IMG/VR virus record: IMGVR_UViG_2711768050_000003
Strand: one strand, 5' to 3'
DNA length: 35,951 nt
Origin: a virus
Lineage: Duplodnaviria; Heunggongvirae; Uroviricota; Caudoviricetes
The notes under the pieces are model-generated. The model saw nothing but the letters and a program-made list of their open reading frames with translations, had not been told where the DNA came from and did not search any database. The translations under genes were made by a program, and so were the position numbers. Shown here in pieces: positions 1,459 through 35,951 of this stretch (its first letter is position 1; every line of letters begins with the position of its first letter).

Positions 1459-2622
1459 TTACACATCATTAGTACCTTCCTTATTTATTGACTGGGACAA
1501 ATTTGGGACCGATGGGTTCAGGATCGAGTCTATTTGCCGTGCGTGTTCGGTAAGGTGATTAGGTGCAAGGTGAGCATATCGACGAACCATTTCGATAGAC
1601 TCCCAGCCTCCCATTTCCTGTAACACTGACAACGGGACTCCGGCTTGAACCAGCCAACTTGCCCAGGTGTGTCTCAGGTCGTGAAATCTGAAATCATCAA
1701 TACCAGCCCGTCTCAGCGCCGCTTTCCAGGCTGTGTTTGCGTCATACCGCATCTTCCTTACTGTTGGCGCTTTCGTTCCGTCTGGTTTGGTACAGCTTTC
1801 CTTGTACACAAATACCCAACGGTGATGATTCCCGATTTGTTTTTTCAAAACGCGACATGCAGTATCATTCAGCGCAACGCCGATTGCGCGGTTTGATTTA
1901 CTCTCTTCCGGGTTTATCCATGCCACCCGGCGCTGCATATCTATTTGTTGCCATTCAAGGTTGATGATGTTCGAGCGTCTTAAGCCTGTTGCCAGTGCAA
2001 ATTCAACAACAGACTTTAATGGCTCCGGACATTCATCAATCAGCCTTTGTGCTTCATGGGGCTCCAGCCAGCGGATCCGTTTATTCTTTGGTTGAGGCAC
2101 TTTAATAATTGGTGCCTTATCCAGCATTTTCCATTCACGCTCTGCGGCTCTTAGTAGGGCCTTTATAAATGAAAGATGCGTAGCCTTCGTTGCAACGGAC
2201 GCTGGTTTTGGCGTGTATTCTGGAACAGGTTTCCCTTTTTTTCTGCATGCTTCTGCCCTGAGTTTCCAGTTTTCCTCATGACGCCGGTTCGTCATTTTCT
2301 GCATTGCTGAATAAATTTTTGATTCAGTAATGTCTCTTAGTTGCATTCCTGCGAAATGTTGAAGCCAGAATCCGATCCGGCTTTTGTCATCGTCCAGTGA
2401 TTTTTTATGTGCTTTCTCTTCAAGCCACCTGACACATGCTTCCTCGAACGTTATATCAGGTATTTCACCAAGTTTACTGACCCGCCATGCTTCAGCCTTT
2501 AGCTTGTCATGGAGTTCTGTCGCCTGCCTTTTGTCCTTTGTTCCAAGAGACTGTTTAAATCTTTTACCGTTCGGCAATGTGAAACTGGCGTACCATATTT
2601 CACCTCTGCGGAAGAGTGACAT
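1459..2622 (-). CDS. int: phage integrase, tyrosine recombinase
   Basis: 387 aa; N-terminus [14 protein letters not shown] typical of lambdoid integrases; C-terminal catalytic motifs ([18 protein letters not shown] with the Tyr); adjacent to the tRNA. Confidence 0.9.
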
Positions 2623-2849: not shown

Positions 2850-3193
2850 TATTTCACCTCTTGCTGTGACATTGTTGAAAAACGGATACCAGCTCGTTGC
2901 TGCCAGACGATCCAACTGAGAGTCATATCCCATGCCATGTATTCGTTATCGCCGTTTTTTGCTCTCCGACGATCGACTGTTTTACCGAAACGCTTTTCCA
3001 TAAATAATTCATAGGCTGCGCGTTCATCTGGCTCAACTTCCAGAGATGCCAGTGCAATCCGTGCCAGTTCTAAATCATTTTCAAGCTCAGCGCGAATCTC
3101 AGCGAATGCACTCTGTGTTAAGGCGAACTCAATGCTCTGCACTTTATTCCGTGCGCGCTCAAGCAGTGCATGGTAGTTAATTTCGGTTGTCAT
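2849..3193 (-). CDS. hypothetical early protein
   Basis: 114-aa ORF with GAGGTAGGGG RBS; ATGA-type overlaps with both neighbouring genes suggest translational coupling. Confidence 0.5.
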   Translation of the reverse strand: MTTEINYHALLERARNKVQSIEFALTQSAFAEIRAELENDLELARIALASLEVEPDERAAYELFMEKRFGKTVDRRRAKNGDNEYMAWDMTLSWIVWQQRAGIRFSTMSQQEVK

Positions 3194-4062
3194 ACCCCTA
3201 CCTCTTCGAATTCCAATTGATCACCCCAGATTTCACATGACTCTGAACACGAACCGGTATCGAATCGCCTGGCCTGTACCATCGCCTGATACAAATTTCT
3301 GTAGTCGCTGTTGGCAGACATTCTGGCAATTCCGTCAAGCGTCAGGTGACCACGGTACATAATGTCTTTACCTGTTCTGCGATGACCATCCCTGACGTGT
3401 TTGCCTGTAACCAGCTCATTAAAAACTCGCATCAGACCTGGTTCGTCTTTACATGCAAGCCCCAGCTTTTGCGTTGACTTTTTGATGCAGAAAACACAGT
3501 TCCCGAGATGCTCCGGGATTTGCAAATCAAAAGGTTGTTTTCGCCACCACCGGATAACATCCGACTTATCAAAATCTGATAGCTCGGCAAGATACCGGAC
3601 GCCCGATTTCGGTTTCAGCCTACGGGGTTCGTCTGCACGAATACCCAGCCATGTGATGTAATTACCTCGCCCGAAATGGTTATCGCAGTATTTCGTGAAA
3701 GGGATGAGTTTTAGCCTGTCAGTACAGAACGCGCCGCCGATGTATGGCGTGCCGTACTTTTTAACCATGTCCATAAACGGTTTAAGCACCGGCATTCGTG
3801 TCTGAATATCCTTTGGCTCCCATTCTGTATAACCATTTGGCTGCCCAAGCTCAGGATTTATATCGACCTGTAACAAAGTTAGTGGTATGTCCCAGAACTT
3901 TACAACCTCCCGGATAAAGCGGTATGTCAGCGGATGTTCGCAACCGGTATCCATAAAGATGTAGCAGACGTTATTGCCAGCCTTTCTTTGTTCTTCCATC
4001 AGGTGAACAAGATATGCGGATGTTCTCCCGCCAGAAAAACTAACTACATGAGTTATGCACAT
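3190..4062 (-). CDS. phosphoadenosine phosphosulfate (PAPS) reductase-family protein, phage type
   Basis: N-terminal VVSFSGGRTSAY PP-loop-like motif typical of the PAPS-reductase/ATP-PPase fold; start chosen at the ATG just before the motif (4062), alternative start at 4179. Confidence 0.55.
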   Translation of the reverse strand: MCITHVVSFSGGRTSAYLVHLMEEQRKAGNNVCYIFMDTGCEHPLTYRFIREVVKFWDIPLTLLQVDINPELGQPNGYTEWEPKDIQTRMPVLKPFMDMVKKYGTPYIGGAFCTDRLKLIPFTKYCDNHFGRGNYITWLGIRADEPRRLKPKSGVRYLAELSDFDKSDVIRWWRKQPFDLQIPEHLGNCVFCIKKSTQKLGLACKDEPGLMRVFNELVTGKHVRDGHRRTGKDIMYRGHLTLDGIARMSANSDYRNLYQAMVQARRFDTGSCSESCEIWGDQLEFEEVGV

Positions 4063-4589
4063 TTGCGTAATTCCGATAACTCGTTGAAGCGTTCCATAAA
4101 CATCCCGTAGGCATGGCCCGGTGCCAGTGGAATAACTTTGAACATCTCTGTTGCCGGGATACCTTCCAGTACAGGCCATAAAGAGCCATCATCAAGCCCG
4201 AGATCACGGCGTTCGGTTGCCAGCATAATGAGATCGGCATATTTCACTGGCGTGCTCATAACAGGAGGTAACCCGTATTTCTCACGGATTACTGCATCTA
4301 TTTTTTCTTCCATCCGTTTATAGTCAGGAAGAAGGCGTTTCAGTGGTGCGGGGATGTCCTGGCAATACGCTTCTGTTGCATCATGCATTAACGCTTCAAA
4401 AGCAAATTCCTGCGGCACCAGCTGGCTGCAAAGCACCGCATGTTGGGCGACACTGTAGAAGTGAGAAAGATGACCGGCAAAGCGACAGATATTTGAAAGA
4501 GAAACCGCGATATCGTTAATCACGATGTCGTCTTTATTTATCTTGTCATAATAAAAATGCTTCCCGGAAAAAGTTTTAATAAATGACAT
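4053..4589 (-). CDS. HD-domain phosphohydrolase (YfdR-like 5'-deoxynucleotidase family)
   Basis: 178 aa from the ATG at 4589, preceded by a GGAG RBS; HD-superfamily residues (ICRFAGH, MHDATEAY); length matches remembered E. coli prophage protein YfdR. Confidence 0.65.
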   Translation of the reverse strand: MSFIKTFSGKHFYYDKINKDDIVINDIAVSLSNICRFAGHLSHFYSVAQHAVLCSQLVPQEFAFEALMHDATEAYCQDIPAPLKRLLPDYKRMEEKIDAVIREKYGLPPVMSTPVKYADLIMLATERRDLGLDDGSLWPVLEGIPATEMFKVIPLAPGHAYGMFMERFNELSELRKCA

Positions 4590-4716: not shown

Positions 4717-5541
4717 TCAGGCGGTGAAAGTGCCAATAAAGGTTTCTACTTTGCTGTCTTTGAATTTCTCAACAAGCAGATCACGAAATTCGTTAGCCAT
4801 ATCTTCCTGCACTGCTTCCAGCTGAATAATGCGCAGAACCAGTACAGGACGATCGCCAGTGATAATGCTGAGGCGTAATTTAAACGGACGTTCTTTCAGA
4901 CCTTCAAACGGAACGCATTTAAATTCAAATGCCACTGGCATAATGTCTTTGGTCTTCGCTTCGACAGATTCCATCAGGGAGCGTTTGCCGCTGAAGTCAT
5001 TATCTTCAAAATCAGCGGTCTGGTTTGCTTCAATCGTGATTTTACGGATTGCCGCAGCCGCTTTTGTTGCCTGAATGGCGTCACCATTAGCATCAAAGCC
5101 CACAAGGTAGTCGGCCCAGTCTTCAATCCATTCTGCCAGTGATTTCTGGGAGTTACGCTCGCCGTTAACAGACAACAGGGCAGAGAACGGTGCTGTCTTT
5201 TTCAGTTTGAGAGTGGCGGTGTTATCTGCGTGACCTGGTTCATCAATAGTACCTAGGTTAAGCACACTGACGGCACGCATATTATCAGCATCGATAAAGC
5301 AGCGGGTGCCTTCATCTGCAAGATCTTTAGAATAACGGGTAAAGTCATCGATGCTGGCAGTGGAAAGCGCACCACGGAAACGGAAGCGATTTAAATTAAA
5401 TTTTTCCAGATCATGAATGCGGAAATTCTCAGGCAATGCCACAGCATCGGCACCAATCTTACTGATAATTTCATTAACACCCTGAGCAGAAATAAGGGCA
5501 TGGATTTGATTAATTGCGGTTGCGTCTAAGTTCTGAGACAT
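4717..5541 (-). CDS. YfdQ-like prophage protein (DUF2303-type), function unknown
   Basis: 274 aa, GAGGAC RBS; sits next to the YfdR-like and YfdP-like genes as in the remembered CPS-53 yfdP-yfdQ-yfdR module. Confidence 0.55.
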
Positions 5542-33878: not shown

Positions 33879-34923
33879 ATTTCAGCGCCCGACGCTGGCA
33901 GAAAATATCAGTATGCTCCGTAACGATTTATTCGCCAGGCTGGACGTCAGCGACACGCTCCGGCGCATGGATGAAGACGTGCGGGCAAAGGTGTATGCGG
34001 CGGCGCTGCATACGGTTTACGGTTACATCGATTATCTGGCAATGAACATGCTGCCTGACCTGTGCGATGAGTCCTGGCTGGCGCGACATGCTGCGATGAA
34101 ACGGTGTCCGCGCAAGGGGGCCACGGCTGCCAGCGGGTATATGCGCTGGGAAGGTGTCAGCGATGGCCTGAAGGTGACCGCCGGGAGTGTTATTCAGCGC
34201 GATGACCTGGTTCAGTACACGGCAACTGCCGATGCAACCAGCTCCGGTGGTGTCCTGCGCGTGCCGATCGCCTGCTCAAGTGCAGGAGCGGCCGGTAACG
34301 CTGACGACGGTACGTCATTAATCCTGGTCACGCCGGTGAATGGTCTGCCGTCTTCCGGCGTGGCAGACACCCTGACAGGTGGATTTGATACTGAAGAGCT
34401 GGAAACGTGGCGCGCCCGCGTCATTGAGCGGTATTACTGGACGCCTCAGGGCGGGGCTGACGGGGACTATGTTGTCTGGGCTAAAGAAGTGCCAGGCATT
34501 ACCCGTGCATGGACATACCGCCACTGGATGGGAACGGGGACTGTCGGTGTGATGATTGCCGGCAGTGACCTGATTAATCCCATTCCGGAAGAATCAACGG
34601 AAACGGCGGCAAGACAACACATTGAGCCACTGGCCCCGGTGGCAGGCTCTGATTTGTATGTATTCAGGCCGGTGGCGCATAAAGTGGATTTTCATATCCG
34701 CGTGACGCCGGACACACCGGAAATACGGGCTGCCATCACCGCCGAGTTGCGTTCGTTCCTGCTGCGTGATGGTTATCCGCAGGGAGAACTGAAGGTATCG
34801 CGTATCAGTGAGGCGATTTCCGGTGCGAACGGGGAATACAGCCATCAGTTGCTTGCACCGGCGGACAATATCTCCATTGCAAAAAATGAACTGGCGGTAC
34901 TGGGGACGATTTCATGGACGTGA
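33865..34923 (+). CDS. baseplate J-like protein (Mu gp47-like)
   Basis: 352 aa; typical baseplate-J size and position. Confidence 0.75.
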
Positions 34924-35498
34924 CAAACGATGATTACATCCGTCTGTTGTCGGTACTGTTGCCACCCGGTCCGGCGTGGTCAGCCAGCGATCCGGCGATT
35001 GCCGGTGCAGCACCGTCATTAACCCGTGTTCATCAGCGTGCGGATGCCCTGATGCGGGAGCTGGATCCGCGCACCACCACCGAACTGATAAACCGCTGGG
35101 AGCGTCTGTGCGGCCTGCCGGATGAATGTATTCCTACAGGGACACAGACCCTTCGCCAGCGTCAGCAACGGCTGGATGCGAAGGTTAACCTGTCGGGTGG
35201 CATCAACGAGGATTTTTATCTTGCACAGCTTGCTGCCCTGGGCAGACCAGATGCCACCATCACGCGATACGACAAAAGCACGTTCACCTGCTCATCGGCC
35301 TGTACTGACGCTATGAACGCGCCTGAATGGCGGTATTACTGGCAGGTCAACATGCCAGCCGCCACCAACACCACCTGGATGACATGTGGCGATCCCTGTG
35401 ATTCCGCACTGCGTATCTGGGGCGACACAGTTGTCGAATGTGTGCTTAACAAACTCTGCCCGTCGCATACCTACGTAATTTTTAAATATCCGGAGTAA
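34914..35498 (+). CDS. tail protein (Mu gp48-like, DUF2313-type)
   Basis: 194 aa; follows baseplate J and precedes the tail fibre. Confidence 0.6.
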
Positions 35499-35501
35499 TC
35501 C

Positions 35502-35808
35502 ATGCATCGTATAGACACGAAAACCGCGCAGAAGGATAAGTTCGGCGCGGGTAAGAACGGTTTTACCCGTGGTAACCCCCAGACCGGCACGCCTGCCACC
35601 GATCTGGATGATGACTACTTTGACATGTTGCAGGAGGAGCTTTGCAGCGTTGTGGAGGCGTCCGGTGCCAGCCTGGAGAAGGGGCGGCACGACCAGCTAC
35701 TTACCGCGCTTCGCGCGCTGCTGTTAAGCCGCAAGAATCCGTTTGGCGATATCAAATCGGATGGCACGGTGAAAACGGCTCTCGAAAACCTTGGTTTGGG
35801 AGAAGGCT
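35502..35808 (+). CDS. tail fibre protein, N-terminal fragment truncated by the contig end
   Basis: ATG at 35502 opens a frame with a conserved-looking tail-fibre N-terminus; the frame continues into adapter sequence from 35809, so the real gene is incomplete. Confidence 0.55.
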
Positions 35809-35951
35809 CTGTCTCTTCTACTCATCTCCGAGCCCACGAGACTAAGGCGAACCTCCTATGCCGTCCTCTGCTTGTAAAAAAAAACTTCATACACGGATAT
35901 TTCCCGTCATGTTCGCATCGTCTTTCACACTACAGTATTATATCAGTATTT
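35809..35951. other. Sequencing artefact: Illumina Nextera adapter read-through with i7 index, poly-A and low-quality tail
   Basis: CTGTCTCTTcTAcTCATCTCCGAGCCCACGAGAC (two mismatches to the Nextera transposase adapter), then TAAGGCGA (N701 i7 index as seen in read-through), then a degraded P7 sequence, then a poly-A run. Confidence 0.85.

Follow-up and report, generated by a model that had tools for sequence, protein, structure and literature searches.

The window analysed here, a stretch of 35,951 nt representing a viral contig, ends inside an open reading frame with the beginnings of a phage tail fibre, and the first-pass annotation had read its last ~143 nt as Nextera adapter read-through. 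This raises the questions of whether positions 35809–35951 are biological sequence, and of why the contig stops where it does.

Prophage context

The proA start codon ATG opens the window, whose left edge appears trimmed at a gene boundary; its right edge is the raw contig end. The following features place the element and lead up to that end:

1369–1444, tRNA-Thr(CGT) thrW
1459–2622, minus strand, tyrosine integrase
3190–4179, minus strand, PAPS-reductase-domain protein (PF01507, E = 6e-8)
4717–5541, minus strand, DUF2303/YfdQ protein
34914–35498, plus strand, Mu gp48-like/YmfQ baseplate gene (Pfam PF10076 Phage_Mu_Gp48, E = 1.2e-26; YmfQ in the reference genome SC407)
35502–35808, plus strand, genuine 5' part of the tail-fibre gene, constant N-terminal module, codons 1–102 (from DNA identity and translation)

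Products of the early region also include an S24 repressor, a CII-like protein and a KilA-N protein. In the late region, identity to Escherichia phage vB_EcoM-689R6 and the Sf phages is 97%, and its tail genes carry the names Mup38 to Mup48 in the annotation of the related phage. For SfII, SfI, SfIV, SfV and vB_EcoM-689R6, this 97% nucleotide identity spans the genes for packaging, head and Mu-like tail and extends as far as the constant region of the fibre, and integration next to proA at the tRNA-Thr gene thrW is another trait that they share with the window. The early region is shared in part, with a coverage of 84% for the best phage and 54–70% for the Sf phages. In comparison with SfII, SfI, SfIV and SfV, homology stops at about 35805, the end of the pixL crossover site described below, and the fibre C-termini of these phages differ. 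The host element is an SfII/SfV-like prophage with a Mu-like tail module, located at thrW near proA in the E. coli chromosome. In SC407, the right part that the window is missing amounts to ~7 kb more, reaching to paoD/paoC.

Anatomy of the contig end

The terminal part of the window was resolved into the following elements:

35809–35811, plus strand, ambiguous junction CTG, common to the real gene and the adapter start
35809–35842, plus strand, Nextera mosaic end and read-2 sequencing-primer site, reading CTGTCTCTTcTACtCATCTCCGAGCCCACGAGAC, with 2 mismatches to the adapter, at 35818 and 35822
35809–35827, plus strand, the mosaic-end part of this element, 17/19 identical to CTGTCTCTTATACACATCT
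35828–35842, plus strand, read-2 primer site CCGAGCCCACGAGAC, exact
35843–35850, plus strand, i7 index N701, TAAGGCGA, exact
35851–35874, plus strand, complement of the P7 flow-cell oligo, AcCTCcTATGCCGTCcTCTGCTTG, 21/24 identical with miscalls at 35852, 35856 and 35866
35875–35884, plus strand, T followed by A9, calls past the end of the library molecule
35885–35951, plus strand, 67 nt of unmatched, G-poor base-caller noise with no homologue

Read in order, the window closes with ...GGTTTGGGAGAAGG / CTGTCTCTTcTACtCATCTCCGAGCCCACGAGAC / TAAGGCGA / AcCTCcTATGCCGTCcTCTGCTTG / TAAAAAAAAA / CTTCATACACGG...TATTT, in which mosaic end, read-2 primer site, a valid 8-nt i7 index and the P7 complement succeed one another without a gap. 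The string expected from read-through of a Nextera read 1 (mosaic end with read-2 primer site, i7 index and P7 complement) was compared ungapped with the window, revealing identity at 61/66 positions of 35809–35874; the runner-up match to this 66-mer anywhere in the window, both strands included, reached 31/66, and the binomial expectation of a match of at least 61/66 on both strands is ~3e-26. The exact 28-mer CATCTCCGAGCCCACGAGACTAAGGCGA, which bridges the primer site and the index, is found a single time in the window, against an expectation of 0 from 100 shuffles. Measured against the eleven other N7xx indices listed, the index in the window differs at 4–8 positions.

The mosaic end abuts the insert directly, and genomic homology stops at 35808–35811. 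The CTG at 35809–35811 is common to adapter and real gene; the junction is therefore ambiguous by 3 nt, and the insert ends between 35808 and 35811. From there the adapter tail faces outward and is terminal, reaching the last base of the window with nothing genomic beyond it. This alignment bore out the first-pass reading of a Nextera transposase adapter with two mismatches, of the N701 index, of a degraded P7 sequence (3 mismatches) and of a poly-A run (T and A9). The low-complexity junk reported at the very end stood in part: the last 67 nt are unmatched noise, but their composition (A16 C17 G8 T26) is G-poor, not low-complexity.

Truncation of the tail-fibre gene

The fibre reading frame opens with the ATG at 35502 and continues without a stop codon up to the last base of the window. 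Its first 103 amino acids are identical to the SC407 tail fibre protein WP_097710789.1 (260 aa), codon 103 (35808–35810, Ser) still being the same as in the real gene, and its DNA is 100% identical to SC407 through 35811. Residues 104–150 (47 codons) are translated adapter and noise. The C-terminus of the SC407 fibre, absent from the contig, contains a phage tail collar domain (PF07484, E = 1.5e-15); the N-terminal constant module matches no Pfam model, and a Pfam search with the chimeric 150-aa frame returned no family. The label 'tail fibre' is used because of the identical annotated homologue and the Collar domain in the missing C-terminus. The adapter does truncate the tail-fibre gene, as had been proposed, with 103 real codons followed by 47 fake ones where the SC407 gene goes on to 260 aa, and the accompanying warning about the C-terminus was justified, residues 104–150 consisting of adapter and noise.

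Absence of the tail from homologous loci

A megablast search with positions 35300–35951 as the query found the flanking region in 1,865 of 5,426 complete E. coli genomes, three of them carrying it at 100% identity. All listed flank matches stop at query position 512, corresponding to window position 35811, and none of the 1,865 genomes reaches further; independent assemblies of the locus thus do not reproduce the tail. In the alignment with SC407 (100% identical reference; cassette region NZ_LR778141.1 4786343–4788902), divergence begins at 35812: the real gene continues as ...GGCTCTG and then CATTACCTGTTGG..., reading CATTACCTGTTGGTGTGCC... past 35812.

When the 143-nt tail alone was searched against complete E. 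coli genomes at blastn sensitivity (E up to 10), only four other genomes gave matches, confined to the adapter part. The two that were inspected, NZ_CP071328.1 and NZ_CP054388.1, are adapter contaminations with other indices. For the last 77 nt, which follow P7, 28 Gb of E. coli genomes yielded nothing significant, 50,697 phage records (2.3 Gb; best E = 2) only chance-level similarity, and the window itself and all fetched loci no match. A junction-specific 45-mer had no match in IMG/VR or in JGI/ENA metagenome contigs, so that no independent copy of the artefact was found there.

The same read-through in other assemblies

GTDB species-representative genomes were scanned with the 42-mer of adapter and N701, the two miscalls of the window being tolerated. 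At least 120 contigs, drawn from unrelated taxa and phyla, contained the string (L004–L123), with Ruminococcaceae, Collinsella, Streptomyces, Synechococcus and Saccharibacteria among the listed taxa, and all 125 listed occurrences face outward, with 0–69 nt (median 6) from the index to the end of the stretch. Because it is common to unrelated phyla only at contig termini, the string cannot be biological.

Where contigs run longer past the index, P7, poly-A and junk follow in this order. In L077 the index is followed by ACCTCGTATGCCGTCTTCTGCTTG, then A11, then A/C-rich noise, and the succession of P7 and poly-A is found in L092, L080, L032, L181 and L178 as well. Two unrelated contigs, L077 and L095, carry P7 miscalls identical to those at 35852 and 35856 of the window (position 2 T>C, position 6 G>C), suggesting that these are systematic rather than random errors of adapter read-through. 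Public Nextera read-through contaminations have the same composition as the window end (mosaic end, read-2 site, i7, P7, poly-A and noise, outward at a contig end); the copy in the window exceeds most others in length (101 nt past the index, where the median is 6) and carries 5 miscalls, and otherwise there is no difference of substance. In the literature we found no citable survey of adapter contamination in assemblies, only passing mentions of adapter screening.

A contig from a public metagenome assembly (L181, OJJN01002125.1) has a closely related arrangement, in which a homologous fibre gene runs through pixL and 81 nt of another cassette into an adapter tail made of the other Nextera adapter, the i5 index ATAGAGAG, P5, poly-A and ~150 nt of A-rich junk to the contig end. 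Tails of ~207 nt with the Nextera read-2 adapter, i5 ATAGAGAG, P5, poly-A and A-rich junk occupy L181 2640–2846 and L178 4472–4680 (both OJJN01), P5 being degraded in the L178 tail.

Some assemblies are affected repeatedly, with many contaminated contig ends each in UMGS677, UMGS1417 and ERR712388_bin.30. Degraded Nextera adapter, index and P7 were also seen inside 'complete' RefSeq E. coli chromosomes. At NZ_CP054388.1 2622602–2622677 (L003 301–376) the artefact covers part of kdpE at its annotated 3' end, and the C-terminus of the gene product, WP_250910240.1, is probably adapter-derived. At NZ_CP071328.1 3493839–3493913 (L002 301–375) it lies in the acrE–acrS spacer, with index GTAGAGGA and poly-A. 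Two further matches, in NZ_AP024114.1 and within ybjT in NZ_CP069692.1, are weak.

A pixL crossover site at the fibre junction

Immediately upstream of the adapter, the fibre gene contains one more feature:

35779–35804, minus strand, 26-bp pixL crossover site of the Din family of serine invertases (TTCTCCCAAACC AA GGTTTTCGAGAG; core dinucleotide 35791–35792)

The site has the pixL form of two 12-bp half sites around a 2-bp core, inside the tail-fibre gene. Read on the minus strand, 35779–35804 is TTCTCCCAAACCAAGGTTTTCGAGAG, identical to pixL at 26/26 positions with 0 such matches expected by chance. pixL is the left crossover site of the e14 P segment (Din family sites, Table 3 of PMC3241671), and the e14 inverted repeat, given as TTGGTTTGGGAGAAGG (PMC12529663), corresponds to window positions 35791–35806. 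Real sequence ends 4–7 nt past pixL, and the adapter starts 4 nt after it. The site, which the first-pass annotation had passed over, marks the boundary between the constant and variable parts of the fibre gene; an invertase-controlled fibre switch is a known kind of system.

The partner of this site can be followed in SC407, where an exact pixR lies in inverted orientation 1.9 kb downstream. The cassette there consists of Sv and tfa on one strand, inverted tfa' and inverted Sv', pixR and a pinE remnant. Inverting it in silico kept the reading frame open, yielding an alternative fibre of 247 aa against 260 aa in the deposited orientation; by Pfam, one of the two C-termini has the Collar domain, and the other a gp53-like match below threshold (20.3 against a cut-off of 24.9 bits). 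The pinE gene beside the cassette (L001 6526–6762) is a truncated pseudogene, and inversion in SC407 would therefore need an invertase in trans. Of this system the window holds only the left site; the second site, the cassette and the invertase would lie beyond the contig end. Cassette classes of both kinds follow pixL in public contigs, which is variation between samples. In phage vB_EcoM-689R6 (L124 27082–28571), a DNA invertase and a McrA-like restriction gene are annotated downstream of a shorter fibre gene of 171 aa.

Among the closest known systems is the e14 P segment with its invertase Pin and the sites pixL and pixR, to which the Mu G segment with Gin and the P1 C segment with Cin are functional relatives. 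The window shares with it an exact pixL at the constant/variable junction of a fibre gene, and the SC407 cassette has the same canonical layout of Sv, tfa, inverted tfa', inverted Sv', pixR and pin. The difference from e14 is that the cassette resides in an SfII/SfV-like prophage with a Mu-like tail module at thrW, and is known here from its left site alone.

A mosaic, multi-copy cassette and a recurrent break point

In 2,656 E. coli genomes, the SC407 fibre gene is matched as two modules, one covering positions 1 to ~305 and the other running from ~285 to the end, and the matches occur at up to 7 places per genome, plasmids included. In public contigs, at least 10 different continuations follow GGGAGAAG, and the GCTCTG of the window fits the commonest.

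Metagenome and IMG/VR contigs were scanned for the pixL 29-mer ending at GGGAGAAG. Among 241 occurrences, 11 loci end exactly at GGGAGAAG (L251, L314, L182, L185, L189, L205, L220, L222, L264, L329 and L357), one ends at +1 and seven end exactly at +40 (L161, L177, L208, L217, L223, L226 and L230); these are ends of loci, which are not always contig ends since a storage cut is possible, and whole contigs were verified for L251 and L314. At the corresponding zero position upstream no locus ends; of the ends up to 130 nt away, 32 lie downstream and 8 upstream. The constant offset of 40 nt appears to be a k-mer effect.

Origin of the contig end

Positions 35809–35951 are a library and assembly artefact and not biological sequence. 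As to how they came to be there, we consider it very likely that an untrimmed read-through of a Nextera N701 read 1 was attached as a dead-end extension to a contig that had broken at the pixL cassette. With an insert shorter than the read, read 1 would run through the Tn5 mosaic end and the read-2 primer site, next pass the i7 index and the P7 oligo, and then reach the end of the molecule, to be followed by poly-A and noise; the miscalls within the adapter would be late-cycle, low-quality calls. Past the end of the template, four-channel Illumina instruments typically call poly-A and two-channel instruments poly-G, and the run at 35875–35884 points to four-channel chemistry. The assembler would have used the untrimmed read as a dead-end extension, with real sequence stopping at 35808–35811, and the miscalls suggest that very few reads, possibly a single one, support the tail.

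In the contig's own genome, pixL would be followed, as in its relatives, by a P-segment-like cassette of variable C-terminus, tfa, inverted tfa', inverted alternative C-terminus and pixR, with a pin gene or remnant presumably after pixR. Short-read assembly graphs branch at this cassette because it is mosaic and often multi-copy in E. coli, and the contig most likely broke at pixL since the cassette is invertible, repeated or both. The contig keeps 3–6 cassette bases (GCTCTG) past 35805, where an exact graph branch would end it; the assembler's choice of an adapter tip over the real continuation is not accounted for by the branch model.

These extra bases are a point in favour of a rather improbable alternative, that the adapter artefact is real but its proximity to pixL coincidental, the contig having stopped at random or where local coverage failed: a pure branch-point stop does not predict them, and the truncated pinE pseudogene of SC407 indicates that inversion need not be active in every host. 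Coincidence would, however, have to place the real end 4–7 nt after a 26-bp site in a contig of 35.8 kb, and it leaves aside that independent contigs end at pixL or 40 nt beyond it far more often than upstream, and that the region past pixL is mosaic and multi-copy in E. coli. A stronger version of the branching account, in which the fibre module, a determinant of host range, is P-segment-like and actively switching, so that the culture was mixed in orientation and the contig stopped at pixL for that reason, is a tentative proposal that we hold to be distinctly less probable than not; switching of the cassette could possibly be driven in trans by the Pin of another prophage.

Readings in which the tail is real DNA fare much worse. 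A genuine insertion derived from Tn5 or IS50, whether natural or from a laboratory EZ-Tn5 mutant, could be suspected in the fibre gene from the resemblance of the first 19 nt to a Tn5 end, the Nextera mosaic end itself being derived from Tn5. Yet this 19-mer differs from the synthetic mosaic end at 2 positions and from the natural IS50 ends OE and IE at 5 each, no transposon body follows, and what does follow is the read-2 primer site, i7 and P7, parts that in the Nextera design are added only by library PCR, and then poly-A, noise and the contig end; among the complete E. coli genomes searched, none has such an insertion at this place. On the end sequence and the Illumina parts after it, we reject a natural Tn5/IS50 or EZ-Tn5 insertion as vanishingly improbable. 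A chimeric join to real foreign DNA or another replicon, comprising at least the last 67 nt, is also highly unlikely, if slightly less so. In its favour, these 67 nt are not strictly low-complexity, but searches of 28 Gb of E. coli genomes, 2.3 Gb of phages, the window and the fetched loci gave nothing significant for them, they sit after P7 and poly-A, where template is absent, and similar unmatched tails follow the adapter in other public contigs. With matches no better than chance level in E. coli, phages, the window and fetched loci, a chimeric origin of the last 77 nt was likewise rejected.

If untrimmed read-through onto a contig broken at the cassette is the correct account, reads clipped at or after 35805 would continue as GCTCTGCATTACC... 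and/or CGGCAAAACGG....

Implications

As an ordinary library artefact, the contig end is of use as a quality-control flag and for data hygiene. Gene calling on the contig would yield a partial 'tail fibre' of at least 150 aa whose last 47 residues are adapter-derived, and peptides of this kind spread into protein databases and clusters; with 5 miscalls, the tail would be flagged only partly by exact-match adapter screens. The contig is missing the receptor-binding C-terminus of the fibre, the chaperone, the alternative cassette, the invertase and the right end of the prophage, and because these parts are missing, no inference on host range or receptor binding can be drawn from it.

In e14, inversion of the P segment driven by PinQ creates StfE2 (PMC12529663), and by analogy, a fibre module that did switch in this prophage might also alter resistance to other phages. 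Where a contig ends at an invertase site, what this reflects is the known biology of fibre cassettes, which are invertible and mosaic, rather than a prophage boundary.
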